A stretch of 64,000 bases of DNA from Escherichia phage vB_EcoM_E9, in the sequence record PP886229; one strand, given 5' to 3'. The first letter of the stretch is position 1; every line of letters begins with the position of its first letter. The position numbers were made by a program, and so were the translations under genes. Positions 12,096 to 64,000 of the stretch are shown here, piece after piece. A model generated the notes under the pieces. The model saw only the letters and a list, made by a program, of their open reading frames with translations. It ran no database searches and was not told where the DNA came from.

Positions 12096-12397
12096 TGGCA
12101 GTTTTAAATTGGTCTACAAATGAAGTAGATACTGATGGTAACCAGTTAAAAGTTTTACCACCACCGGAAGTTCAAGAGACAGGTCTTTTAAAGGGTGAGC
12201 CTATGGGTAGACAGTGGTTCAACTATATTATCAACTACCTGCTTAATAAAGTAAACGGCACTGTTGGTGAAGTTCGCTCATATGCAACTGAGCAACCAGA
12301 TTTAGTGGCTAATGGCTGGAATCTGATTAAGTCTGAGACAGGGACTGCATCAACAAGTACAAGAAACCTTTACACATATGAATATGTAGGAGCTTAA
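12095..12397 (+). CDS. hypothetical tail protein
   Basis: 100 aa ORF, coupled to neighbours. Confidence 0.3.
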
Positions 12398-12399
12398 TA

Positions 12400-13575
12400 A
12401 TGGCAGTAGGTGAAATTCAAATCAGTGCCTTGCCACAAGCGGCCTTACCAGTTGATTTAAGTGATATCTTCCATCTTAAGCAAGGTGTTGAGGATAAAAG
12501 ATGTACGCTTGAACAGTTGTTAGCACCTCACGCATCTCTGAGGAATAACCCTCATGGTGTAACCAAATCACAAGTGGGTCTTGATAATGTTATTAACTCT
12601 CTTCAATTAGTTGCAGCTAATAACTTATCAGATATTGTGAATGTTGCTGAGGCAAGAGCAAATCTACAAATTATGTCGTCAGAGGAAGTGAATAACTTAA
12701 TTCAGCAACATATTGACGATAAAAGTAACCCACACAATACAACGAAAGCACAAGTTGGATTAAGTAATGTTCAGAACTGGACAACATCTAATCTGTACAA
12801 TGAAGATGCTGATAAGTATGCTACCGCGAAAGCAGTTAATAATTTATACAAAGCTATCCAAGCGTCATATCCAGTAGGGACTATTCATCTATCTGTTAAC
12901 TCTGCTAACCCATCCACTTACTTGCTTTGTGGAGGTACTTGGGAGTTAGTTTCTAAAGGTAGAGCACTAGTTGGTTATGATACAGATTCTAGACCTGTTG
13001 GTTCAACGTTTGGTTCTCAGACTGTAGCATTAACAAATAATAATTTACCAGCACATACCCACTCTATCTATCTAACAGGTGGTGGTCATACACACTCTGC
13101 AAGTGTATCTATCTCTAGTTTTGATTATGGTTCAAAAAGTACATCAACTTTTGATTACGGTACAAAAACGACTAATAGTGCTGGTGCTCACACTCACACG
13201 TTTAGTGGCACAACAAGTAATGCTGGTAACCACAACCATAGAGTCCCTATGAGGGGTAATGATAGGGGTGGCACAAACGCTATTACTGCATCTGCTGATG
13301 CTGGTGTTGGTAATGCTATGTATACTGATTTAGCTGGTGCTCACACCCATAGCTTCTCAGGTACAACTGCATCATCTGGTGCTCATAGCCATACTGTCGC
13401 AATTGGTGCTCACAGCCACACTGTTAATATTGGTTCGCACAGTCATACAGGAACTGTTACTGTTTCTAGCTCTGAGCATACACACTCAGGGACATCTGGT
13501 TCTGTTGGTGGTGGTCAAGCTTTCAGTGTTGAGCAGCCATCTTTTGTAGTGTATGTGTGGCAGAGAACAGCTTAA
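12400..13575 (+). CDS. tail fibre protein with His-x-His repeat tip
   Basis: 391 aa; repeated NPH..TK.QVGL.NV.N motifs N-terminally and many H-x-H motifs C-terminally (AHTHS, GHTHSAS, GAHTHTFSGTT, GNHNHRV, GAHSHTV x2, GSHSHTG), as in T4 gp37/gp12-type fibre tips. Confidence 0.65.
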   Translation: MAVGEIQISALPQAALPVDLSDIFHLKQGVEDKRCTLEQLLAPHASLRNNPHGVTKSQVGLDNVINSLQLVAANNLSDIVNVAEARANLQIMSSEEVNNLIQQHIDDKSNPHNTTKAQVGLSNVQNWTTSNLYNEDADKYATAKAVNNLYKAIQASYPVGTIHLSVNSANPSTYLLCGGTWELVSKGRALVGYDTDSRPVGSTFGSQTVALTNNNLPAHTHSIYLTGGGHTHSASVSISSFDYGSKSTSTFDYGTKTTNSAGAHTHTFSGTTSNAGNHNHRVPMRGNDRGGTNAITASADAGVGNAMYTDLAGAHTHSFSGTTASSGAHSHTVAIGAHSHTVNIGSHSHTGTVTVSSSEHTHSGTSGSVGGGQAFSVEQPSFVVYVWQRTA

Positions 13576-13585
13576 TTTCTTTACA

Positions 13586-13606
13586 GGGGCTATAAAGCCC
13601 CTTTTA
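13586..13606 (+). terminator. hairpin attenuator between the two tail fibre genes
   Basis: GGGGC-tataaa-GCCCC followed by TTTT, then RBS and ATG of the next fibre gene. Confidence 0.4.
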
Positions 13607-13621
13607 AGAGGAAAATTTATA

Positions 13622-16171
13622 ATGGCAGATTACAAATTGAGTCAATTAAACTCAATCGACACAATTCGTTCAGAAGACCTATTGCACATCAGAGTTAAGA
13701 AAAGACCTGAAATGTTGGGTGACGAAGACCGTAGAATGACCTATCAAGACTTCTTAGCTTCTTTCAAACTTGAAAGATTTGTTCAGATTGCTGGTAGTAC
13801 TATGACAGGTGACTTAGGTATTGTTAAGTTACTTTATGGTGGTAAGGCAGTATTTGACCCAACAGGCTCTTCTGAGGTTACTATTGGGGATGTTTTAAAG
13901 ACTTTTAAAATTAACGCAAATGGTCTTAAACTAGCTATTGCAGATGCTTCAAGGTCAGCAACTGTTTATCATACTCTGAATAAACCAAGTCCTAATGAGC
14001 TTGGGATGAGAACTAATGAAGAGAATGATGAAAGATATGCAAGGCTTGCTATCACAAATAACTTCAGCATTAGGCAAGCAATCGTAACTGATGGTGAGCA
14101 GTTAACTCTTAAGAAGGCAACCAATGCAGGTGCTTCATATATTCAAGGTAGAGATGCTAATAACCAGCAAACTTGGTATGTTGGACAGGGAAATGCAAAC
14201 AGCAATAATGTTTATTTGTACAATCATACTACTGGTGCAATGTTAACCCTTGATGCAACAGCAGCATTTAATAAGTCACTTAGAATTGCTGGTCAAGTTC
14301 AACCTTCGGATTTCTCTAACTTAGATGCCAGATACTTTACTCAGACAGTTGCTAATCAGAGATTTGCACAGTTAGCTGGTAATAACACTTTTACAGGTGC
14401 TAATACATTTAGGACTATGAGTATTATCTCAAATGCTGCTGCTATCACACTACAATGTGCATCAGCAAACGAATCCCTGTATCTACTTGCAAAAGATTAT
14501 CAAGGTGGTAACTTATGGTATGTTGGTAAAGGTAGCTCAGGTGATGGTGTAACTATCTACAACTATACCACTAACACCTCTTTGGTCTTAGATGCTGCTG
14601 GAGTATCAGCAAATAAAAATGTCAGAATCACTGGACAAGTTCAACCTTCAGATTGGGCTAACATTGACTCTAGATATATTCCGGCAGCAACATTAAGTAC
14701 AATTGCAAGAACTAATGCAAGGAATACTTTTAATGGTGTACAGACAGTTGTTACGGATAATGAAGGTCTGATTGTTAAAAACTCTACTCAGAATAGACCA
14801 TTATATATTCGTGGTGTGGACACTACTAATGTATCAAGATGGTGGATTGGTGTTGGTGGTGCTGATACGAATGATGTTACCCTAAATAACAGTTATTCTG
14901 GAACCCAATTGGTTCTCGGGAATACAACATCATACATTAACAAAACATTGACTATTGCTGGACAAGTTCAACCTTCAGATTTCTCTAACTTAGATGCTAG
15001 ATACTTTACGCAAAGTGCTAGTGATAGCAGATACCTAAGAATCAGAAGCACTAGCTTCAATGTGGGAAACACTGATAAGTGGGCTAAAATTGCCACTGTT
15101 GTTATGCCACAATCAGCATCCACTGCTGTTATTGAGGTATTTGGTGGGTCAGGTTTTAATATTAATACACCAAACCAAGCAGGTAAATGTGAAATTGTTC
15201 TGCGAACTTCAAATAACAACCCAAAGGGCTTAAATGTTGTTGCTTGGAGAACATCAGATAACACCATTGTCAGGGATATTGGTTATGTGAATACTTCTGG
15301 AGACACCTATGATATTTACTATCTTGCTGGTACGTATCAAAACGGCACAACGACAAGGGTTCAGTCTTCTAGTAATGCAAGTGTACAGTTGTTTGAAGTC
15401 CCACAGACATTTGATGATGCTCCACAAGGTATTGTGAAGGGTACAATTGCAAAATACTACACAAGTTTGCAAAAACCAACCCCTTCAGATATTGGTGCAT
15501 ACACTAAAGCAGAGACTGACCAGAAAATTGCAGATGCAATTAGTGACTCTACAGACCTGAATAAAATCTACCCAGTAGGTATTGTAACGTGGTTTAACAG
15601 CAATGTTAACCCTAATACAGCACTTCCTGGGTTAACTTGGACGTACCTGAACAATGGTGTGGGTAGAACTATTAGAATTGCAGCAGCAAATGGTTCAGAT
15701 GTTGCTACAACTGGTGGTTCAGACTCTGTAACGTTATCTGTTGGTAACTTACCTTCACACACGCATAGCTTCTCTGCTACCACTTCATCATTTGATTATG
15801 GTACTAAGACTTCTAGCACAACTGGTAACCATAACCACAACAGGGGGACTATGGAGATTACTGGTACAGTAGGTTACTTCAGAAGTGATTCTAGCAGCTT
15901 CTACACAGCAAGTGGTGCATTCACACTTGGTAGTTCAACTGCTTCTAAAGGTTTTACTGGTTCTAACTTCACTTATGGTATCCCTGCTAACTTCAATGCG
16001 TCAAGAACTTGGTCTGGTGTAACGAATACAACAGGTAACCACAGCCACACTGTTGGTATTGGTGCTCACAGCCACACAGTTAGCGGTAACACAGGTGGTA
16101 CTGGTTCTGGTTCAGCATTTAGTGTTACTAACCAGTTCTACAAGTTAATGGCTTGGGTAAGAACTGCTTAA
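13622..16171 (+). CDS. large tail fibre protein
   Basis: Start moved to ATG at 13622 (after hairpin, with RBS); internal triplicated segment (..IAGQVQPSDFSNLDARYFTQ.. x2, ..ITGQVQPSDWANIDSRYIP..); C-terminal H-x-H motifs and tail AFSVTNQFYKLMAWVRTA resembling the upstream fibre's AFSVEQPSFVVYVWQRTA. Confidence 0.65.
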   Translation: MADYKLSQLNSIDTIRSEDLLHIRVKKRPEMLGDEDRRMTYQDFLASFKLERFVQIAGSTMTGDLGIVKLLYGGKAVFDPTGSSEVTIGDVLKTFKINANGLKLAIADASRSATVYHTLNKPSPNELGMRTNEENDERYARLAITNNFSIRQAIVTDGEQLTLKKATNAGASYIQGRDANNQQTWYVGQGNANSNNVYLYNHTTGAMLTLDATAAFNKSLRIAGQVQPSDFSNLDARYFTQTVANQRFAQLAGNNTFTGANTFRTMSIISNAAAITLQCASANESLYLLAKDYQGGNLWYVGKGSSGDGVTIYNYTTNTSLVLDAAGVSANKNVRITGQVQPSDWANIDSRYIPAATLSTIARTNARNTFNGVQTVVTDNEGLIVKNSTQNRPLYIRGVDTTNVSRWWIGVGGADTNDVTLNNSYSGTQLVLGNTTSYINKTLTIAGQVQPSDFSNLDARYFTQSASDSRYLRIRSTSFNVGNTDKWAKIATVVMPQSASTAVIEVFGGSGFNINTPNQAGKCEIVLRTSNNNPKGLNVVAWRTSDNTIVRDIGYVNTSGDTYDIYYLAGTYQNGTTTRVQSSSNASVQLFEVPQTFDDAPQGIVKGTIAKYYTSLQKPTPSDIGAYTKAETDQKIADAISDSTDLNKIYPVGIVTWFNSNVNPNTALPGLTWTYLNNGVGRTIRIAAANGSDVATTGGSDSVTLSVGNLPSHTHSFSATTSSFDYGTKTSSTTGNHNHNRGTMEITGTVGYFRSDSSSFYTASGAFTLGSSTASKGFTGSNFTYGIPANFNASRTWSGVTNTTGNHSHTVGIGAHSHTVSGNTGGTGSGSAFSVTNQFYKLMAWVRTA

Positions 16172-55950: not shown

Positions 55951-56143
55951 CTTCTGTAAAGACTGTGCTATTGAAATGTTCGGACGTGATACAGGTGACT
56001 TAAAAGGTCTTATCACTGAAGATGACTTTAAAGCTGGCTATGCAATGCCAGTAATCTGTGAAGGTTGTGGATGTATCTGGGTAGACCATGAAGGACAGCG
56101 TGTAAAACCTTCAGAAGATAAAGAATCTTGGGAGAGATGCTAA
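55943..56143 (+). CDS. small Cys-rich protein
   Basis: Start trimmed to MADFCKDC..; Cys pairs CKDC and CEGCGC. Confidence 0.3.
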   Translation: MADFCKDCAIEMFGRDTGDLKGLITEDDFKAGYAMPVICEGCGCIWVDHEGQRVKPSEDKESWERC

Positions 56144-56929
56144 ATGGGTATTGTAAAAATCATCAATGGGGATATCTTCTCAGCATTTGATAAAGGTAAG
56201 TTTGATATTATTGGTCACGGTTGCAACTGTATGAACTTAATGGGTGCAGGTATCGCTGACAAGATTTCTAAACTTTACCCAAAAGCATATGAGACTGATA
56301 CAGAAGTTTATCTGTATGCAGGTGGTATAGGTCACAAACCCTGTGAAAATTTACTAGGTAATTTCTCTGTAGCACGTTTAAAACAAGGTCGTATAGCTAA
56401 TCTTTACACTCAGCTTAAGACTGGTAAAGATGCCCGATACAGTGCTTTAGAGTCATCTTTGAAACAGCTTAACAGATACTGTGAAGTCAATCAGTTGAAG
56501 AAAGTCGGGTTACCTATGATTGGTGCAGGTATCGGTGGGCTAGACCCTCAAGCCATCACAGTTATCATTAATCAGGTGATGAAGAGTGTAGATGTTTATC
56601 TGTATGTCTACGAAGGAGAGATGTACCACAAGTTACGCTCAGGTTGGAAGAACTACTGTGAGCCAGAATACTTTGCAGGTGTAGTAACGTTCACAGATGA
56701 TGCAGTTACCCTCTTCAGACGAAGAAAAGGTAAGATACATCAAAGTAACCCTCCGGTTGAGAAGATGTCTCTAAGTAACGCTCTAGTTACCCACATGTCG
56801 AAGGGCAATCACAGGATAGCCGTAACATTTGGCAGTGATGCAGATACATATATCTATGCAAGAACTGATGAGGATATCGAGGAAATTTTCTCATCATCAG
56901 AAGTTACCTTCTTAGACGCAAAGAGCTAA
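56144..56929 (+). CDS. macro-domain protein (ADP-ribose-binding/processing)
   Basis: ..INGDIFSAFDKGKFDIIGHGCNCMNLMGAGIADKI.. and ..KVGLPMIGAGIGGLD.. match the two glycine-rich macro-domain signatures (recollection). Confidence 0.5.
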   Translation: MGIVKIINGDIFSAFDKGKFDIIGHGCNCMNLMGAGIADKISKLYPKAYETDTEVYLYAGGIGHKPCENLLGNFSVARLKQGRIANLYTQLKTGKDARYSALESSLKQLNRYCEVNQLKKVGLPMIGAGIGGLDPQAITVIINQVMKSVDVYLYVYEGEMYHKLRSGWKNYCEPEYFAGVVTFTDDAVTLFRRRKGKIHQSNPPVEKMSLSNALVTHMSKGNHRIAVTFGSDADTYIYARTDEDIEEIFSSSEVTFLDAKS

Positions 56930-56995
56930 GAAACTCTGTAGAATATTCACAATAGGTTAAGCCTTTCTTATCTGGTAAATTTTTCAGGTAAGGAG

Positions 56996-57190
56996 GGCTT
57001 TTTCATTTCAGGATTGTGCAGGTAGAGTTCTGTAGAGAAATCTGTAGAGAGAATTTTGAACTCCAAAGAGAAAATTCATTTTCAAACTGTGCAGATAATC
57101 TCCAAAGAGCTTTTTCATTTTCAAAACGTGCAGACCCCGCTAAGGTCGGGCAAGAAAAATCATTTTCGAATTGTGCAGGTAGGTGGGTAC
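56996..57190. repeat. four direct iteron-like repeats (TTTTCATTTYCRAAAYTGTGCAG)
   Basis: Copies at about 56996, 57069, 57107 and 57155; ctccaaagag also duplicated; upstream of the first early promoter. Confidence 0.55.
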
Positions 57191-57356
57191 AGGTGGGAAT
57201 GTCGCCGTTTCTCACAAGGCTACCACATATGAAAAGAAAAGTCAACAGAAAAATTTGTAGCGGATTGAAAAATAATTCTTGATTGTAGTTCTGTTTTGTG
57301 GTAGTCGCGCGCCCGTTTCATTACAGTTTTTTGCAAAAATATTTTTAAAATTTTTC

Positions 57357-57445
57357 TTGACTCTCTGACTATGGTTATTTAATATTTGCATCAACGGGGG
57401 GCGATGACCTCCCAGCTAACTAACCTTAAACTAGGAGATTCAAAA
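57357..57445 (+). promoter_or_regulatory. early promoter plus conserved leader (type B variant)
   Basis: TTGACT-N17-TAATAT, leader hairpin GGGGGGCGATGACCTCCC, conserved RBS context ..ccttaaactaggagattcaaaaATG. Confidence 0.5.
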
Positions 57446-57826
57446 ATGGCTTATCGTGCACCTAAATTCATCAACAAAGACAACTTTCGCAACGTACTGG
57501 AGAAGGCACTTGATGAAAAATTTAACGGTAAAATAATTGTTGTTCATGCGTTCAATTTCAAGTATGATATCAACGGGAATAAAATCAACCATTACACGGC
57601 AACCATGTTAGATGGTACGCTATCAAGTGAAAAAGCCGTACTGAATGCACTGGCAGGACGCGGAAAAGTATTAGTAAGATGCGATAAGAGACGTTATCAG
57701 GGTGGCGCATATGGTTACGATGATGCTGTTTACCATCTTGAAAATATGGGCTATTCAGTGGAAAAAGCTGGAGCGTCTCAAATAATTGGCAGTGACGGCT
57801 ATGTGACAATTTTCAAAATTAACTGA
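57446..57826 (+). CDS. early small protein E1
   Basis: Start at ATG 57446 behind the conserved RBS; 126 aa. Confidence 0.5.
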   Translation: MAYRAPKFINKDNFRNVLEKALDEKFNGKIIVVHAFNFKYDINGNKINHYTATMLDGTLSSEKAVLNALAGRGKVLVRCDKRRYQGGAYGYDDAVYHLENMGYSVEKAGASQIIGSDGYVTIFKIN

Positions 57827-57991
57827 TAAAGTACTTTACAAGGGGCTTATAGTTCGATAAAGTAAGCCCCAGATAAAGAGCTTTACCACTCAATCCTAAA
57901 TTATAAAGTACTTTACAAGGGGCTTATAGTTCGATAAAGTAAGCCCCAGATAAAGAGCTTTACCACTCAATCCTAAATTGGAGATTCTAAA
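57827..57991 (+). promoter_or_regulatory. type A intercistronic element, tandem duplicate
   Basis: Two consecutive copies of aaagtactttacaaGGGGCTTAtagttcgataaagTAAGCCCCagataaagagctttaccactcaatcctaaatt, the second ending in RBS plus ATG. Confidence 0.55.
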
Positions 57992-58285
57992 ATGGCTATT
58001 ATCAAAAACGTTGTAATTACTGCAAAAACTCGCGATGACGCTCGCATCATGGCGAAAAAGTTAGGCGGGAAAGTTGTTGACAACGGAAAACAATCTGCTG
58101 TAAGATGGGGCGTGAAGACTGATAAACAGTTGAAGTTAAAAAATTCACCAATAAACCTTTTTACATGTGTAAACACTATCGGGAAGACAAATGTATACAC
58201 GAAAAAGGCATATATCAGACGCGTAGCCATGACATCACCTATTCGCACAATGAGAAGTCATGCAAAGCTGAAAATTAATCGTTAA
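57992..58285 (+). CDS. early small protein E2
   Basis: 97 aa, basic; conserved RBS. Confidence 0.5.
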   Translation: MAIIKNVVITAKTRDDARIMAKKLGGKVVDNGKQSAVRWGVKTDKQLKLKNSPINLFTCVNTIGKTNVYTKKAYIRRVAMTSPIRTMRSHAKLKINR

Positions 58286-58371
58286 AGTACTTTACAGGGG
58301 GCTTAAAAGCTGATATCTTAAGCCCCAGATAAAGAGCTTTACCACATTAATCCTAAACTGGAGATTCAAAA
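58286..58371 (+). promoter_or_regulatory. type A intercistronic element (covarying hairpin variant)
   Basis: Same flanks as other type A copies; hairpin is GGGGCTTAA-aagctgatatc-TTAAGCCCC, stem kept with a different loop. Confidence 0.55.
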
Positions 58372-58668
58372 ATGAAGTTAACAAATAAAGTCCGTGAAAA
58401 TTTAAGCAAGTTGCTCAACAAAATCAATTTTATTGAGACATCAAGAAATAGTCATGATGTTATGGAATGGTTACACGGAAAAATCAAAGGCCGTCGTGTA
58501 GTGATTTGCTTATGGAATAGTTGCAGGGAATATAAAAAACCTGTATTACAAGTCAATATCTATGATGATACTTTTAAAAGCCCTGTAAAGTCTAAAAGTG
58601 ATTTATTAGAATCCTATGAGATAACTGTAAATGGCAAAGTATCACGTAAAGAGGAAACACCATGTTAA
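58372..58668 (+). CDS. early small protein E3
   Basis: 98 aa. Confidence 0.5.
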   Translation: MKLTNKVRENLSKLLNKINFIETSRNSHDVMEWLHGKIKGRRVVICLWNSCREYKKPVLQVNIYDDTFKSPVKSKSDLLESYEITVNGKVSRKEETPC

Positions 58669-58994
58669 TGACTGGTATCACTGCAATCATTGCCATTTTC
58701 GCGCTATATAAGGCATATAAAGCCTATAATCTAGCAAATAAGGCAATCACACAGCAGGTTAGCAATAGCCTTGTAGAAAGCTTTCTAGGGCGTCTCAGTG
58801 ATGAGCAAATAAAGCGGTTAGAAATGAGCTTCAGATTCAAAGCGAAAACCTATCAGATAAGTGACATCTTCAAGGATGATTTCCAGTTAGTCGATGATTA
58901 TAATTCTCTGATAAATGCTTTAAATATCAGTGACTTAAAAGACTACTACGCTGTAATTGTTCAAGAATTGAGCAAACGAAAAAATTTCTCTTGA
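58662..58994 (+). CDS. early small membrane protein E4
   Basis: 110 aa, N-terminal TM helix (GITAIIAIFALYKAY); overlaps E3 stop. Confidence 0.45.
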   Translation: MLMTGITAIIAIFALYKAYKAYNLANKAITQQVSNSLVESFLGRLSDEQIKRLEMSFRFKAKTYQISDIFKDDFQLVDDYNSLINALNISDLKDYYAVIVQELSKRKNFS

Positions 58995-59084
58995 TTTTGG
59001 TTTTCAAAACAAGTAAATTACTAATCAACGGGGAGGGAATGACCTTCCCCACTAAGTAAAGTCCTTAAACTAGGAGATTCAAAA
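58991..59084 (+). promoter_or_regulatory. type B promoter-leader module
   Basis: TTGATT-N17-TAAATT (-35 overlaps the E4 stop codon), leader hairpin GGGAA-tgacc-TTCCC, conserved RBS context. Confidence 0.55.
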
Positions 59085-59357
59085 ATGTACACTACTAACA
59101 ACGGTCGCACCTTAAACGTAACACTGCGCCACTATGTGAACGGTGTAATGCACTTCGAGGATTTACAAGCTGAACAGCACATCTTAGATTGGCAACTTGC
59201 AGGACTCCAAAAAGCTGCTACCGGATACGGGAAAAAGATTCCAACTAGCTGGAAAGTATACTACGAAGGACGTTTGCGCAGAATTTATCAAGATGTATGC
59301 AGCAATAGCGCATCAAGTTACATCATAGTAAAAGGTAAAAAGCTGCATTTAGCATAA
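59085..59357 (+). CDS. early small protein E5
   Basis: 90 aa. Confidence 0.5.
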   Translation: MYTTNNGRTLNVTLRHYVNGVMHFEDLQAEQHILDWQLAGLQKAATGYGKKIPTSWKVYYEGRLRRIYQDVCSNSASSYIIVKGKKLHLA

Positions 59358-59442
59358 AGTACTTTACAAGGGGCTTATAGTTCGATAAAGTAAGCCCCAG
59401 ATAAAGAGCTTTACCACTCAATCCTAAATTGGAGATTCAAAA
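59358..59442 (+). promoter_or_regulatory. type A intercistronic element
   Basis: Identical to copy at 57827. Confidence 0.55.
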
Positions 59443-59847
59443 ATGACTATTAATAATCGTGAGTTATCAATCTTAAAAGCACGTTTGACCGTTAACCGGA
59501 TTAATGTTATTACATCATCAGCACCGGATGAGACATTGCACAACATTATCGGGAAGATTCAAAGTGTTATCTTAGACGTTGAAAGCGTAAAAAACTCACT
59601 GGCTGACGTTGCAGCAGGTATCACGCTAGACGGTGCACAATATGAAATGGCTGACATGTTAGGCAAATCTAAGGTAATGAATAAAGAGCTTGATTTAAAA
59701 ATGTTCCGCTTTGCCGTGAAAGTGTGGCTATCTGTCGAGTATGACGCAAATTTTGCAATCGCTGACTTTTTCGCAACATGGTTGCAACGTAATTTAACAA
59801 ATCATGATTTTCGTGATATCTGCGACGTAATTTACGCAGAACTTTAA
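59443..59847 (+). CDS. early small protein E6
   Basis: 134 aa. Confidence 0.5.
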   Translation: MTINNRELSILKARLTVNRINVITSSAPDETLHNIIGKIQSVILDVESVKNSLADVAAGITLDGAQYEMADMLGKSKVMNKELDLKMFRFAVKVWLSVEYDANFAIADFFATWLQRNLTNHDFRDICDVIYAEL

Positions 59848-59856
59848 AAATTTCTC

Positions 59857-59950
59857 TTGATTTTGGTTTTCAAAACAAGTAAATTACTAATCAACGGGGA
59901 GGGAATGACCTTCCCCACTAAGTAAAGTCCTTAAACTAGGAGATTCAAAA
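59857..59950 (+). promoter_or_regulatory. type B promoter-leader module
   Basis: Near-identical to 58991..59084. Confidence 0.55.
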
Positions 59951-60154
59951 ATGGCTACTATTAACGGCTTAAACATTGAAACTACTCACATCAAAGATAT
60001 CAAAGTTGGCGATATAGTCCTTTTTCACGGCGTAGAAAAAACCGTCACTGAAAAGGATATCAAGGAGGATTCATTCATGGGCCGGACTCTCTTCGGTGAT
60101 TCTTATTGCTTAGGTTACCTTGCAGTTTTAAAAGTTGTCAAAAATAACCGTTAA
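59951..60154 (+). CDS. early small protein E7
   Basis: 67 aa. Confidence 0.45.
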   Translation: MATINGLNIETTHIKDIKVGDIVLFHGVEKTVTEKDIKEDSFMGRTLFGDSYCLGYLAVLKVVKNNR

Positions 60155-60240
60155 AGTACTTTACAAGGGGCTTATAGTTCGATAAAGTAAGCCCCAGATA
60201 AAGAGCTTTACCACATTAATCCTAAACTGGAGATTCAAAA
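60155..60240 (+). promoter_or_regulatory. type A intercistronic element
   Basis: Same hairpin and flanks as 57827 copy, ..cacattaatcctaaactggagattcaaaaATG 3' end. Confidence 0.55.
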
Positions 60241-60783
60241 ATGAAATGCTTTCACGGTACTACTCAAGAAAACTTCGTCAACCTGATTAATAACGGTGAT
60301 AAACCATCAGGCGCATGGAATTGTTCGGATATGGATGGCAATTTTTACGTTTATCCAGAAAATAAAATCTATGGCGACGATGAGGAAGAAATAATCTCTG
60401 AAGGCATTCAACAAGCTTTAGGTAATGCCACTATAACGGCAGCTTTTCAGATGAAAACTCAAAACATTGTTATCTTGGAACTTGATATTCCAGAAGATGA
60501 GTTGAATGATGATTATTCTTGTGATAATATGTCGAGTGTGGCAAGTTTTACAGAGTATTTTGATATAAGCTGGATTAAAAAGGTTTATATCACTGAATTT
60601 AATGCTATGTTTTCACCTTTTTGTCTTCCTTCACTGGATAACCCGAACTTAAACTATCTTGATGAGTCTCTGGAACTTCTCGCTAAAAGTGTTCAGCAAT
60701 CGGACAGTATTCAGGTTTTTTGTGACATCATGGATACACTAACAGGAAACATTGCAGAAGAGGATTTGAAGAGTTTTTTCTAA
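60241..60783 (+). CDS. early acidic protein E8
   Basis: 180 aa, strongly acidic (..GDDEEEIISEG.., ..LDIPEDELNDDYSCDN..). Confidence 0.5.
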   Translation: MKCFHGTTQENFVNLINNGDKPSGAWNCSDMDGNFYVYPENKIYGDDEEEIISEGIQQALGNATITAAFQMKTQNIVILELDIPEDELNDDYSCDNMSSVASFTEYFDISWIKKVYITEFNAMFSPFCLPSLDNPNLNYLDESLELLAKSVQQSDSIQVFCDIMDTLTGNIAEEDLKSFF

Positions 60784-60849
60784 AAACCTATGCAATCACC
60801 TTATAAACACTGATTAGCCCCTCACAGGGGCTTTTAGGAGGCTTTAATC

Positions 60850-61083
60850 ATGCTTACAACCATTTACCTCATCCTTTCTATCTGTAATGGTCATTCGTGT
60901 GACTTTAAAGGGCTTGAAGAGTTTACAGGAAGTAAAGAAAATGCTATTCAAGTGTGCCAGATAGCAAGGCAAGACTATCCCGCCAGTGATGATATACAAT
61001 GTTACTTTAAGACAGAAGATGAAGACGGTGTCTATTTTGACAGCGTAGACGGTCAATATGAAATTATCATTGAAAAAGACTAG
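60850..61083 (+). CDS. early small protein E9
   Basis: 77 aa, preceded by hairpin AGCCCCtcacaGGGGCT and RBS aggagg. Confidence 0.45.
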   Translation: MLTTIYLILSICNGHSCDFKGLEEFTGSKENAIQVCQIARQDYPASDDIQCYFKTEDEDGVYFDSVDGQYEIIIEKD

Positions 61084-61172
61084 ACAAGCCTGATAAAAGT
61101 CTGTAAATTGTCAATCAACGGGAGGTAATAACCTCCCCACTAAGTAAAGTCCTTAAACTAGGAGATTCAAAA
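61081..61172 (+). promoter_or_regulatory. type B promoter-leader module (variant)
   Basis: TAGACA-N17-TAAATT; leader hairpin GGGAGG-taataa-CCTCCC (stem and loop differ, pairing kept). Confidence 0.5.
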
Positions 61173-61514
61173 ATGGCTTATGTAACCGTAATTACCGACA
61201 AAGCTGGCTCATCTTGGTCAACTCAAGTAAGCGATAAGATGTCACCTATGCAGTGCCTAAAATACTTTGAGCAATGGAACAAAGGCGAGGGTGTCAGCCC
61301 CTTTCAAGTGATGCAGATTATCCATACAGATAACGAAGGGAATAAAACTGTTTTGAATAGTGAGTACTACGCAACCAGATTTGAAACGAGATGTAAAGCG
61401 ATGAAGATATTACGCGAGTCTGGCTATTCTCATATTGCCTCACTAATCTGGGATGACCTGCTAAAAAATCAGCGTATCAGCTATGTAAAACCTGAAAAAA
61501 TATTCATCAGTTAA
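61173..61514 (+). CDS. early small protein E10
   Basis: 113 aa. Confidence 0.5.
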   Translation: MAYVTVITDKAGSSWSTQVSDKMSPMQCLKYFEQWNKGEGVSPFQVMQIIHTDNEGNKTVLNSEYYATRFETRCKAMKILRESGYSHIASLIWDDLLKNQRISYVKPEKIFIS

Positions 61515-61643
61515 TCAACAACTTACAAAAAACTTTTAAAAAGATGTTGACAATCCCTCTTGACATTGGTAACTTTGTTCGAGGGGGTTTATCTAAAAGG
61601 GATTAACTTAAAAGATTCTTTATAGATAAGCTTAAAAAATTGC

Positions 61644-61735
61644 TTGCAATCAGATATCAAAACAAGTAAATTACTAATCAACGGGGAGGGATGACCTCCC
61701 TACTAAATAAAGTCCTTAAACTAGGAGATTCAAAA
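61644..61735 (+). promoter_or_regulatory. type B promoter-leader module
   Basis: TTGCAA-N17-TAAATT, leader hairpin GGGAGG-gatga-CCTCCC; extra TTGACA hexamers and a hairpin in the 220 nt spacer upstream. Confidence 0.5.
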
Positions 61736-62266
61736 ATGAACAAGTTCAAAGCTATCAACTACATTCGCTCAAATAGTGTCATGTCTAAGCCTGTTAAGGA
61801 TACCTACGAATTCCGTTGCAATGGTGAACACTTTGCTACCATCACCAAATCAAACAACGGGGCTTATTATATCCATCGTCGTAATGTTTCTACGGTTGTA
61901 GTTTCTAACTTTATGCAAGCTGTAGCGGAACTCCTCCCGCTCTTCTTAGAAAAGTATGCCGTACAGTGTGAAAGTGTTCGTGAATGCACTAAAACAGTGT
62001 TAAACGGTTATCGTATGGCTTACGAGCGCTCTTTAAAGAGTCTCAATAAATACTACAAAGCACCGGAAGGCACTTCATCCACAGCCTACGGGGTAGGGGG
62101 CTTCAATGTCAGCCTTTACGAAGTGGAAGAAATCGAGCTTTATGACCATCGCCCAAATGGTTACGCTAAGACACTGGGAGAGGGGTTAATGCTGAATATC
62201 AAGAACTTAGAAAAAACTTTAAGAGAAATTGAAAAAGATATTGACGAGACAATCAAAAGTCTGTAA
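61736..62266 (+). CDS. early protein E11
   Basis: Start at ATG 61736 behind conserved RBS; 176 aa. Confidence 0.5.
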   Translation: MNKFKAINYIRSNSVMSKPVKDTYEFRCNGEHFATITKSNNGAYYIHRRNVSTVVVSNFMQAVAELLPLFLEKYAVQCESVRECTKTVLNGYRMAYERSLKSLNKYYKAPEGTSSTAYGVGGFNVSLYEVEEIELYDHRPNGYAKTLGEGLMLNIKNLEKTLREIEKDIDETIKSL

Positions 62267-62331
62267 ATTGTCAATCAACGGGGAGGGAATGACCTTCCCC
62301 ACTAAGTAAAGTCCTAAACTGGAGATTCAAA
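62241..62331 (+). promoter_or_regulatory. type B promoter-leader module embedded in the 3' end of E11
   Basis: TTGACG-N17-TAAATT with the -35 inside the E11 coding sequence; leader hairpin GGGAA-tgacc-TTCCC. Confidence 0.5.
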
Positions 62332-62595
62332 ATGGAACACGTAGAACTGACCACACTCTTACAAATCGCAACCGACAAGGAAGACGTAGCATTATTTCAC
62401 CGTATCGAAAGTGATTTGTTCAATGGTGAAATCATCAAAGAGTCTTACGAGGTTGTCGGATTCAAAGACGGTAAAGCATTTGGCTTTTTTGACCTCGACA
62501 AAAGCAAAGCGGTTACAAAGTACGATGTTCTATCTTGTGAGATTCTTACAAAATACAACGAAAAAAGGCTTGCAACATACGCCAACATGCAGTAA
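62332..62595 (+). CDS. early small protein E12
   Basis: 87 aa. Confidence 0.5.
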   Translation: MEHVELTTLLQIATDKEDVALFHRIESDLFNGEIIKESYEVVGFKDGKAFGFFDLDKSKAVTKYDVLSCEILTKYNEKRLATYANMQ

Positions 62596-62660
62596 ATTAC
62601 TAATCAACGGGGAGGGATGACCTCCCTACTAAATAAAACCTTAAACTAGGAGATTCTAAA
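62570..62660 (+). promoter_or_regulatory. type B promoter-leader module
   Basis: TTGCAA-N18-TAAATT overlapping E12 stop; leader hairpin GGGAGG-gatga-CCTCCC. Confidence 0.5.
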
Positions 62661-62909
62661 ATGGCTACTATCCGCGCAACTGTTAACGAATTCGGCTTTT
62701 GCTCTCTGGATGTTAAATTTGACCTTGTAGGTACTGATAACGCCTTTGAGATGGTGAAAGGTCTTATCAATCAGACCATAAAAGACTATAAACCTTCTGA
62801 TGAGTTCTGGGAGGAAACAAAACAGGAAGTTCTTACGCATGGTCACACTTATCACTATTGGGGAGAAAAAATCGTCTCCCTGTACTACGACAAAGAAGGC
62901 ACTAACTAA
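62661..62909 (+). CDS. early small protein E13
   Basis: 82 aa; last gene before a terminator and a long non-coding region. Confidence 0.5.
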   Translation: MATIRATVNEFGFCSLDVKFDLVGTDNAFEMVKGLINQTIKDYKPSDEFWEETKQEVLTHGHTYHYWGEKIVSLYYDKEGTN

Positions 62910-62947
62910 ACGCCGCAACGGGGCTAAATAGCCCCAGATACCTTTAC

Positions 62948-62972
62948 AGCCCCTTAAATGGGGCTTTTTTAC
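62948..62972 (+). terminator. rho-independent terminator closing the early gene array
   Basis: AGCCCC-ttaaat-GGGGCT followed by TTTTTT; preceded by hairpin GGGGCTaaatAGCCCC. Confidence 0.6.
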
Positions 62973-63009
62973 GTCTTATCAAAGCTCTATACAATCCCTT
63001 TCCTTCCCT

Positions 63010-63065
63010 TTCCAGAATCTATCCCACTAATTCGACAGAATCTATCCCACTAATTCGACAGAATC
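63010..63065. repeat. tandem direct repeat cagaatctatcccactaattcga (2.5 copies)
   Basis: Two perfect 25 nt units plus a partial third. Confidence 0.6.
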
Positions 63066-63359
63066 TATCTCGTACCTTAAAAGCAATAACTCTATAGCTT
63101 ACTCTATAGCCCCTTATCAAATCAACTTAAATAAAAGCCAATAACCCCCAGAAAGGGGATGGCCCATTTAAACGCTCTATAAAGCTCTATAACAGCCTTA
63201 TCAACCTAACTTAAGGGATTGCATTAACCCACTCTAAAAAGCCCTTTATAAAGCTTCCTATAGCCTCAAAAGAATCTTATAAGGGTGTAAGCTTTATCAT
63301 CTCGTTAGCTATCTTGTGAATAACTCAATAACCCTTGATAGTCTCTAAAAAGTATGTTA

Positions 63360-64000
63360 TAGGGGCTGTTAAGTTACTTTGAAGTTACGTAAAAGAGGCT
63401 ACAAAGTTACGTAAATGCTAGCCCCCTTAACATTCTCTTAACAATTTCTTAACAATCCCTACATAGTTATGCTTGTTAGAGACTTGTTAGCCCCTTGTTA
63501 AATCTCTGTTAAGACCACGTAAAAGCCTTGTAAGAGTCTTTAGCATAGCCTTTAAAGCCTCTGTAAAGCCCTATAAAGAGGTGTCTACATAGTTGGGGTG
63601 TAATTACTAGGAAGAGACTTAAAAGAGCTTACAAAGAGCTATAGAGAACTTTTAAGAGGTATGTTTAGAGAATCACTAAGAAAGAGAGGGAACTATAGAC
63701 CAAGAGATAGTGACCATGTTAATAGCTTGTTAAAAAGATTAAACACTTGTTAGGAATTTGTTAATTATCTTAACAAAATAACTCTTAAAAATTAACTTGT
63801 TAGCTCTTATTAGTCATCTGTTAAGACTCTGTAAAACCTATGTATCAACTGTTAAGAAACTGTTACACCCTTGTTAGCTCTGTTAAGAATCTGTTAAGAC
63901 CTCTGAAGAGATGTTAAGAGGTTGTAAGAACTGTTAAGAGATTGTTAAGGATATTTTAAAATTTTGCAAAGGGGATGTTACAGGGATGTTAAGGGCTACC
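63360..64000. repeat. array of YTGTTARG motifs, helically phased at the 3' end
   Basis: At least 15 copies of (c/t)tgtta(a/g)g(a); from about 63849 to 63945 ten copies recur every 9-11 bp; no ORF of 60 aa or more; array runs to the window edge. Confidence 0.6.

Follow-up and report, generated by a model that had tools for sequence, protein, structure and literature searches.

An accessory early-gene array in a Felix O1-like phage, probably built from self-contained promoter, hairpin and leader cassettes

Escherichia phage vB_EcoM_E9 (sequence record PP886229) carries 13 small open reading frames (ORFs), E1 to E13, in an array on the + strand of the 64,000-nucleotide (nt) stretch analyzed here, which we call the window. 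We propose, with a probability of about 0.7, that this is an accessory early-gene array of a Felix O1-like phage, built from self-contained cassette expression units. Each unit would consist of one ORF and, behind it, a ~90-nt cassette reaching from that ORF's stop codon to the next ATG. Twelve cassette copies of 76-94 nt were found in the window with nhmmer, all within 57343-62663. They form two families, type A with seven copies and type B with five.

The window is, judged by its matches, a Felixounavirus genome (Felix O1-like myovirus, Ounavirinae). A megablast search with 57300-63000 matched 255 phage records at 60-99% identity; where a genus was named, it was Felixounavirus or a relative, and the top match, at 93%, was PP892526. 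The array has counterparts in Felix O1 (NC_005282; ORF15-ORF23, downstream of rIIA, rIIB, pnk, the spanins and the macro-domain 'phosphatase' ORF13), in Bas63 (MZ501086; bas63_0098-0111, or g98-g111) and in SUSP1, where it starts at agp096 and genes through agp109 appear in the supplement of PMC11879866. For comparison, we took 29 loci anchored on the macro gene from IMG/VR, and ORF order was compared across ~25 relatives in three genera. In two loci, L031 and L032, the macro gene is merely 41-42% identical; these come from an unrelated phage without cassettes and served only as a negative control.

A shared leader forms the tip of longer cassettes

A sequence-only reading of this DNA had described 13 ORFs of 67-180 amino acids (aa) packed on the + strand at 57446-62909, 12 of them behind a shared translation-initiation context, with a macro-domain gene just upstream. 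The ORFs, their strand, their packing and their sizes were all borne out, as was the macro gene (56144-56929; PF01661, 30.4 bits versus a cut-off of 22; PHROG 335, 'phosphatase'). The sharing of the start context also goes far beyond chance: GGAGATTCWAAAATG has 10 matches at 0 mismatches in the window versus 0.03 expected, and all lie within 57434-62663. The count, however, had to be corrected. Together with E12, whose start has the same context with one A fewer, the 10 exact matches bring the ORFs preceded by GGAGATTC(A/T)AAA(A)ATG to 11 of 13. E4 lacks this context and has its own GAGG; its start overlaps the end of E3 (ATGTTAATG overlap), to which it is predicted to be translationally coupled. 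E9 also lacks it, having its own AGGAGG behind a separate hairpin.

Nor is the start context the whole unit. Conserved sequence reaches ~90 nt upstream of the ATG, and the shared context is its 3' tip. The last ~25 nt, leader plus Shine-Dalgarno (SD) sequence, are common to both families and read CCT(T)AAACT(A)GGAGATTC(A/T)AAA; this places GGAG, in A-rich and unstructured surroundings, 8 nt ahead of the ATG. The leader core CCTAAACT(A)GGAG is retained in three genera. Type A cassettes, which precede E1, E5, E7, E10, E11, E12 and E13, are ordered as A-tract, -35, 17-nt spacer, -10, ACTAATCAAC, a G/C hairpin of 6-8 bp, ACTAAGTAAAGT and leader CCTTAAACTAGGAGATTCAAAA; the -35 occurs as TTGACT, TTGATT, TTGCAA, TTGACG or TAGACA and the -10 as TAAATT or TAATAT. 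Type B cassettes precede E2 (with an additional truncated solo copy), E3, E6 and E8, and read TAAAGTAC-TTTACA-a-GGGGCTTA...TAAGCCCC-AGATAAAGAGCTTTAC, then ~10 nt, then the leader TCCTAAAyTGGAGATTCAAAA. The cassette also contains the upstream gene's stop codon, which type B provides as the TAA of TAAAGTAC and type A as either the TAA of TAAATT or the TGA of TTGATT. Cassette profile searches found no copy in the other 58 kb of the window or in the first 45 kb of a relative's genome, and a type B covariance model returned the same five copies in the window and no others. The features of the region are as follows.

56959..57000, +: intrinsic terminator closing the rIIA...macro operon; 17-pair stem, then a T-run; t13 of Felix O1 (PMC3185647 Table 2)
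57357..57445, +: type A cassette before E1; -35 TTGACT 57357-62, -10 TAATAT 57380-85, hairpin 57396-57413, leader and SD 57424-57445, AT-rich tract upstream
57446..57826, +: E1, 126 aa, PHROG 4495
57827..57902, +: solo type B cassette, truncated before SD and ATG; tandem duplicate of the next cassette, ends at CCTAAATT
57904..57991, +: type B cassette before E2; long hairpin 57904-57962, TTTACA 57912-17, TAAAGT 57935-40
57992..58285, +: E2, 97 aa, isoelectric point (pI) 11.2, PHROG 5089
58283..58371, +: type B cassette before E3; variant hairpin GGGGGCTTAA..TTAAGCCCC, -10-like TATCTT 58314-19
58372..58668, +: E3, 98 aa, PHROG 4401
58662..58994, +: E4, 110 aa; no cassette, start within the end of E3, N-terminal hydrophobic segment
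58991..59084, +: type A cassette before E5; TTGATT, N17, TAAATT; hairpin 59030-59050
59085..59357, +: E5, 90 aa, PHROG 3436
59355..59442, +: type B cassette before E6; first TAA is the E5 stop codon
59443..59847, +: E6, 134 aa, PHROG 4327; orthologue of Felix O1 ORF20
59857..59950, +: type A cassette before E7; 97% identical to the E5 cassette over 120 nt
59951..60154, +: E7, 67 aa, PHROG 3623; missing in several relatives
60152..60240, +: type B cassette before E8
60241..60783, +: E8, 180 aa, acidic, predicted ADP-ribosyltransferase (ART) fold; homologue of Bas63 gp107 and SUSP1 agp105
60816..60849, +: GCCCCT..AGGGGC hairpin, then the AGGAGG of E9; no promoter
60850..61083, +: E9, 77 aa, acidic; N-terminal hydrophobic stretch, then Cys (MLTTIYLILSIC)
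61081..61172, +: type A cassette before E10; -35 TAGACA includes the E9 stop codon; hairpin 61120-61138
61173..61514, +: E10, 113 aa, PHROG 4318; orthologue of Felix O1 ORF21
61644..61735, +: type A cassette before E11; TTGCAA, N17, TAAATT; hairpin 61683-61701
61736..62266, +: E11, 176 aa, PHROG 4725; orthologue of Felix O1 ORF22
62241..62331, +: type A cassette before E12; -35 within E11, E11 stop is the TAA of -10 TAAATT
62332..62595, +: E12, 87 aa, PHROG 7022; missing in Felix O1, Bas63 and others
62570..62660, +: type A cassette before E13; its -10 supplies the TAA that stops E12
62661..62909, +: E13, 82 aa, PHROG 4559, last array gene
62916..62970, +: array end; hairpin CAACGGGGCTAAATAGCCCCAGATA (62916-62940), then intrinsic terminator 62948-62965 with a T-run

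Both cassette types keep a promoter-like signature

The spacer between -35 and -10 is 17 nt in 12 of 12 window copies. Across 108 distinct type B copies, CTTTACA is invariant. So are the opening T and A of the hexamer 17 nt downstream, and its last T is kept in >90%; its middle three bases vary along with the rest of the loop (TAAAGT, TATCTT, TAAGAT, TAGTAT, TACCAT). The consensus of 98 distinct type A copies is an A-tract, TTGaca (TTG ~0.9), N17, TAAATT (TA 0.99) and ATCAAC (0.99). Both types fit the pattern expected of sigma-70 promoters and would on that basis be active. The dense array that the sequence-only reading saw is confirmed as one of small accessory genes, and its candidate promoters are of host type.

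Could the conserved TGCTTTA be a MotA box instead? In T4 middle promoters, the MotA box lies 11-13 nt from the -10; here the distance is 19 nt, and we rejected this reading. An N4-type hairpin promoter was considered for the hairpins and likewise rejected. Felix O1 seems to lack genes for an RNA polymerase of its own and for factors that modify the polymerase (PMC3185647). Its 2010 genome paper called the organization and regulation of transcription not known; the cassette sites are not among the promoters it gives, and two of the repeats are listed, uninterpreted, as 'direct repeats' (PMC3185647).

The hairpins are conserved, and type B is strand specific

The type B hairpin forms a helix of ~20 bp, interrupted by one bulge and a 3x3 internal loop (-24.3 kcal/mol, z = -4.3). 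Over the 108 variants, 96.7% of cells are paired, versus at most 57% when the partners are slid. At the outer pair 8-61, 89 sequences have GC and 11 have UA; the inner stem occurs both as CTTAA/TTAAG and as TTATC/GATAG, and G.U pairs are common (104 and 40 sequences at two positions); the covariation score was reached by 0 of 500 shuffles. The covariance model scores the window copies at 60-96 bits on the + strand versus 28-46 on the - strand, which suggests that the structure is read on the + strand, that is, as RNA.

Type A hairpins exist in ~50 sequence variants, and all of them fold, with a mean of -12.4 kcal/mol versus -3.7 for shuffles. Stem versions include GGGGAGGG/CCTTCCCC, GGGAGG/CCTCCC, GGGGC/GCCCC, GGGC/GCCC and GGGGAAG/CTTCCCC. 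A 5'-terminal stem-loop is known to shield Escherichia coli mRNAs from 5'-end-dependent decay, as in the ompA leader work. Because the type A hairpin starts 10 nt past the -10, transcription would be expected to begin 2-4 nt before the stem, and the hairpin would then have a 5'-terminal stabilizing role.

Perhaps the hairpins are intrinsic terminators? Neither type is followed by a T-run and a terminator scan listed neither, so this reading was rejected; the only intrinsic terminators in the array region are those at 56959-57000 and 62948-62965. Known RNA families gave no other identity. No Rfam family reached its gathering score anywhere in the window, and an E-value search of 56900-64000 returned a single chance microRNA match on the opposite strand of a B cassette. 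There are no tRNA genes in the 64-kb window.

Related phages gain and lose genes at the cassettes

Felixounavirus and the clade with 63-70% macro identity, to which SUSP1 belongs, have their ORF families in collinear order, and single units are present or absent (x2, x4, x8, x11, x16, x17, x20, E2, E7 and E12). When BLAST blocks of the window were compared with six relatives, every breakpoint fell in a cassette, at -124 to +5 nt relative to an ATG or within an ORF's last 3 nt. In the partner genome, the two blocks beside a breakpoint share 19-60 nt of cassette homology.

The cassettes themselves change accordingly. Ahead of E1, E7, E8, E10 and E11 the cassette family differs between phages, some having type A and others type B. 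An order of A:x4 B:E1 becomes A:E1 when x4 is missing, as in the window, and A:E7 B:E8 becomes A:E8 when E7 is missing. One locus, L024, holds an exact tandem duplicate of the E2 unit, and x8 and E7 stand in swapped order in L008 and L013. The two genes without a cassette of their own travel with a neighbor: E4 goes with E3 in all complete loci except L025, and E9 is found in every relative that has E8.

Two side observations concern the E2 region. Where the window has a solo and a complete type B copy before E2, Bas63 has a single one; the solo copy at 57827-57902 looks like a scar of unequal recombination. E2 itself exists in relatives in two forms, of 85 aa and 96-97 aa, which have ~50 N-terminal residues in common and different C-terminal halves; this junction is a mosaic point inside the gene, not at a cassette.

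E8 is predicted to adopt an ADP-ribosyltransferase fold

All 13 array proteins belong to PHROG families of unknown function, and Pfam, NCBIfam and PDB sequence searches of the array ORFs gave no match above threshold, in keeping with the earlier failure to recognize a motif. E8 had been singled out as strongly acidic and possibly of the DNA-mimic type. The acidity is real (pI 4.05, net charge -24). The mimic is not: structure prediction and structural search, which had been suggested as a check, point to an ART fold. The AlphaFold model made from a 92-sequence alignment (predicted local distance difference test [pLDDT] 96, predicted template modeling score [pTM] 0.90; a 14-sequence model was poor, at pLDDT 60.7) matches ART folds almost exclusively, with an alpha/beta ART domain followed by a C-terminal helical part. 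An Ocr/ArdA-type DNA mimic was therefore rejected, and E8 is, as modeled, an ART-fold protein. Its close homologues are confined to Ounavirinae; a profile search extends the family to 326 clusters of proteins of ~170-200 aa.

The ART superfamily includes Tpt1/KptA, LT-A, pertussis S1, the Rhs toxins TreTu and TreX, DarT and PARP, and its catalytic triads are H-Y-[EDQ] or R-S-E. In the 92 relatives, Y36 and D91 are invariant (92/92) and H5 and G6 nearly so (91/92 and 90/92); the other most conserved residues are W26, S29, S93, C94, N96 and M97. E8 possibly carries an H-Y-D triad formed by H5, Y36 and D91; E80, unlike D91, is not invariant in the alignment. No Pfam or NCBIfam family, and hence no Pfam ART model, matched E8, its PDB sequence search was empty, and PF00644 (PARP) matched only 3 of the 92 relatives (best E = 0.0024). 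The Bas63 study mentions a 'slight' Tpt1-like similarity of gp107, the E8 homologue (PMC11482910). We rejected the assignment of E8 as Tpt1/KptA: in the 92-sequence alignment, no position keeps an Arg in 70% or more of the sequences, so E8 is without the Arg-His-Arg-Arg tetrad of Tpt1.

Genes upstream of the array touch on the same chemistry. In L035 (PP892526 45001-79300), whose genes there correspond to the upstream part of the window, NAD synthetase, ribose-phosphate pyrophosphokinase and nicotinamide phosphoribosyltransferase genes precede the macro-domain gene, in the same long + strand gene run as the array; the latter two enzymes of Bas63 counter Sir2-HerA. Together with the macro gene and the ART-fold E8, these NAD genes suggest an NAD+ / ADP-ribose theme in the region.

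Two further proteins deserve mention. The N-terminal membrane helix proposed for E4 corresponds to a conserved hydrophobic stretch of 16 residues, MLMTGITAIIAIFALY. The last 3-4 codons of E4 (58975-58996) double as the A-tract and -35 of the next cassette, and its C-terminal ends vary among phages (KNFS, KNSS, KQNC, KQSV, KNLS), apparently following the subtype of that cassette. The E9 N terminus, MLTT(I/V)YL(I/M)L(S/A)(I/V)C, is conserved, as are three further Cys in the sequences shown; this N terminus may function as a signal peptide or as an anchor resembling that of lipoproteins, and a superinfection-exclusion type of function is conceivable.

Expression timing and screens in relatives

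By reverse transcription-PCR (RT-PCR) in Felix O1, ORFs 13 (macro), 16, 20, 21 and 22 peak 5 min after infection, and the peak of ORFs 17, 19 and 23 comes at 25 min (PMC3185647 Table 3). The early expression expected by the sequence-only reading is supported for the orthologues of E6, E10 and E11 (ORFs 20, 21 and 22); those of E3, E5 and E13 have the 25-min peak.

That reading had further supposed a host-takeover or anti-defense role, which finds no array gene behind it in either of two screens. In the main text of the Bas63 study, the clonally validated counters to 12 defense systems are g77, g79, g80, g84, g85 and g130, none of them in g98-g111; the only array gene given there with a host-dependent effect is g107, the E8 homologue, with a larger fitness effect in S17-1 (PMC11482910). 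In SUSP1, agp096-agp109 were called 'Not Fit' (knock-down without effect in laboratory E. coli), and 0 of 19 Fit genes lie in the array (PMC11879866); the guides target the ribosome-binding site (RBS) region, which is common to several array genes, and this weakens the 'Not Fit' calls. Taken together, the screens suggest that the array genes are dispensable accessories in laboratory hosts. A conditional role in host interaction is plausible: it is compatible with the screens and draws no positive support from them.

Weighing the explanations

How would a cassette unit work? We propose that each cassette supplies a sigma-70-type promoter read by host RNA polymerase, a G/C-rich stem-loop formed in the + strand RNA, and the near-identical ~25-nt leader with its ribosome site. 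In type A, the hairpin would stand at the 5' end of the transcript as a stabilizer. In type B, it spans the stop-codon region and encloses the -35 and -10; in read-through RNA it could serve as a 3' or inter-cistronic hairpin (stabilizer, processing site or attenuator), and RNA begun at the embedded promoter would lack it. Since the same ~25-90 nt recurs in one orientation between nearly all genes, it constitutes portable homology, and homologous recombination between cassettes could delete, insert, duplicate or reorder single ORFs with expression intact.

Several points weigh against this proposal. Promoter use and start sites are predictions from sequence alone. Genes behind type A and type B cassettes are not told apart by the Felix O1 RT-PCR timing, in which the peak of three orthologues comes at 25 min. 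Without a U-tract after either hairpin, a terminator role is doubtful here. Only three type B pairs change on both sides, a count equaled by 238 of 500 shuffles; given so few compensatory changes and the shared ancestry of the copies, the covariation is supportive, not decisive. Leaders resemble each other at 0.82-0.85 within a genome versus 0.77-0.80 between genera, each lineage having its own dominant variant; the likeness within a genome is barely above that between genera, so ongoing homogenization would be weak. Finally, gene order is mostly collinear in three genera: gain and loss dominate, with little true shuffling.

Might the array instead be one long early operon, transcribed from a strong promoter at 57357 in the manner of T7, with the hairpins as RNase III or RNase E sites and 3' stabilizers and the hexamers incidental? 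A single pair of terminators brackets the array, and the strand-specific type B helix of ~20 bp, with its 3x3 loop and bulge at the stop codon and its G.U pairs, has a shape typical of RNase III substrates such as the T7 R sites. Yet TTTACA and the TA...T 17 nt on are (near-)invariant in 108 type B variants while neighboring loop bases vary, and type A retains its A-tract, TTG, N17 and TAnnnT despite several -35 versions. This conservation is hard to explain without selection for promoters, and we consider the operon account unlikely on its own; processing and promoter cassettes are not mutually exclusive. Lower still we place the idea that the leader is a tag for a trans-acting post-transcriptional regulator, a repressor or GGAG-cutting endoribonuclease in the manner of T4 RegA/RegB, that would jointly switch the genes off after the early phase. 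The leader is conserved well beyond a minimal SD, keeps CCTAAACT(A)GGAG in three genera, is limited to this one gene set and can form a weak UCCU/AGGA hairpin able to mask the SD. The same pattern is accounted for by recombination-driven homogenization plus selection for strong initiation, and the annotation of the closest complete genome, in which no profile search was aimed at such a gene, lists nothing like RegA or RegB. We judge such a tag improbable.

That the repeats are selfish mobile DNA, such as miniature inverted-repeat transposable elements (MITE-like) or homing sites with no part in expression, would suit their many near-identical copies in a small region and the solo truncated copy at 57827-57902. 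It does not suit copies that keep one orientation throughout, exactly fill the space from stop to ATG and provide both stop codon and ribosome site; we saw neither terminal inverted repeats nor target duplications nor a transposase, and the rest of the genome contains no further copy. Hardly any weight remains for this account. The strongest competitor takes the array to be chiefly an anti-defense or host-takeover arsenal whose uniform ribosome site serves only high expression. It gains from the small ORFans with host-type promoters whose presence varies between phages, from the toxin-type ART fold predicted for E8, whose Bas63 homologue matters more in one host, and from the macro-domain and NAD+ salvage genes upstream. 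It loses from the absence of array genes among the validated counters to 12 systems in the main text of the Bas63 study and among the SUSP1 Fit genes, and from the lack of any array family with a known function. We regard it as a real possibility, at somewhat less than even odds. A joint reading goes further than the cassette units. It combines integrase-free gene capture in Ounavirinae (a counterpart of integron arrays, with ORFs excised as circles and re-inserted at any cassette), leader and hairpins as an RNA timing tag acted on by RNase III, RNase E or a repressor, and E8 as an active NAD+-dependent ADP-ribosyltransferase of the 326-cluster family on a host target. As a package, it stands at long odds.

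Felix O1-like phages are widely used in typing, biocontrol and therapy of Salmonella and E. coli. For them, the 12 per-gene promoter/hairpin/leader cassettes would amount to a concrete, testable promoter map of the early accessory region, would account for strain-to-strain differences there, and may be natural insertion sites for engineered payload genes; they also make RBS-targeted knock-down guides liable to cross-hit several array genes. E8, from a widespread small ART-fold family and in the same + strand run as macro-domain and NAD+ salvage genes, is a biochemical lead.

Comparison with known systems

The closest parallel is the promoter-early stem-loop (PeSL), a mobile regulatory cassette of T4-type phages (Arbiol et al. 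2010, PMC2839356; Comeau et al. 2014, PMC4122927); full-text literature searches found no paper applying the concept to Felix O1-like phages. PeSLs and the array cassettes alike combine an SD and a GGGG...CCCC stem-loop with a sigma-70-like -35 and -10 and an AT-rich tract. Each group has members whose hairpin sits between the promoter boxes or covers them, as in type B, and others whose hairpin follows the -10, as in type A; both groups are associated with ORFans and bound gene gain and loss between relatives. The differences are these. The lineage here is Ounavirinae, with genomes of ~88 kb, not T4-like, and the likeness is purely architectural, with no sequence similarity. All copies here stand in one array, whereas PeSLs occupy several hyperplastic regions; here, too, a ~25-nt leader/SD is common to both classes, and the type B outer helix lengthens the hairpin to ~20 bp. 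Terminator activity and mini-circles were shown for PeSLs by experiment; no U-tract follows the hairpins of the array cassettes. Judged by this architecture, the cassettes are a PeSL-type array in a new phage lineage, and the PeSL principle would not be confined to T4-like phages.

The T7 early region (genes 0.3 to 1.3) is transcribed by the host polymerase and has RNase III sites between its genes. It resembles the array in its small early genes, its use of host polymerase and its irregular inter-cistronic hairpins, expected at mRNA 3' ends. It differs in having three promoters at its left end only and no per-gene promoters, and its hairpins are neither near-identical repeats nor indel junctions. 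The host-takeover module of SPO1 reportedly contains about two dozen small early ORFs, mostly of unknown function, with many strong early promoters and unusually strong ribosome sites. SPO1 is a Bacillus phage of unrelated sequence, and we know of no repeated promoter/hairpin/leader cassette described there as a recombination linker.

Flanking stretches and a database entry

Upstream, four copies of a ~27-nt repeat, TCATTTTC(A/G)AA(C/T)(T/C)GTGCAG(A/G)TA, lie 39-72 nt apart at 56994-57182. They fall in a gap of 516 nt that separates the macro-operon terminator from the first array promoter. Relatives match the stretch around this gap, 56100-57398, at ~95% identity, and their annotations of small ORFs there are inconsistent, on one strand or the other. 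The repeats could be a regulator-binding array or a small RNA.

At the other end, the hairpin CAACGGGGCTAAATAGCCCCAGATA after E13 has a type A-like 5' flank (CAACGGGG) and a type B-like 3' flank (CCCCAGATA) and may be a terminal half-cassette. The terminator comes directly after it, and beyond lies >1 kb without ORFs (62975-64000), dense in TGTTAAG / CTTGTTA motifs at ~10-11- and 31-nt spacing in both orientations, with an exact 23-nt tandem duplicate at 63013-63058. A 1.6-kb non-coding stretch (12305-13928) comes after the array at the same place in Felix O1, and PP892526 is linearized ~950 bp past E13. An origin, a packaging site or a terminal-repeat region could be located here. PP892526, also our locus L001, is filed in GenBank as Demerecviridae; Tequintavirus. 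This taxonomy line looks wrong for a record whose gene content and synteny match a Felix O1-like phage.

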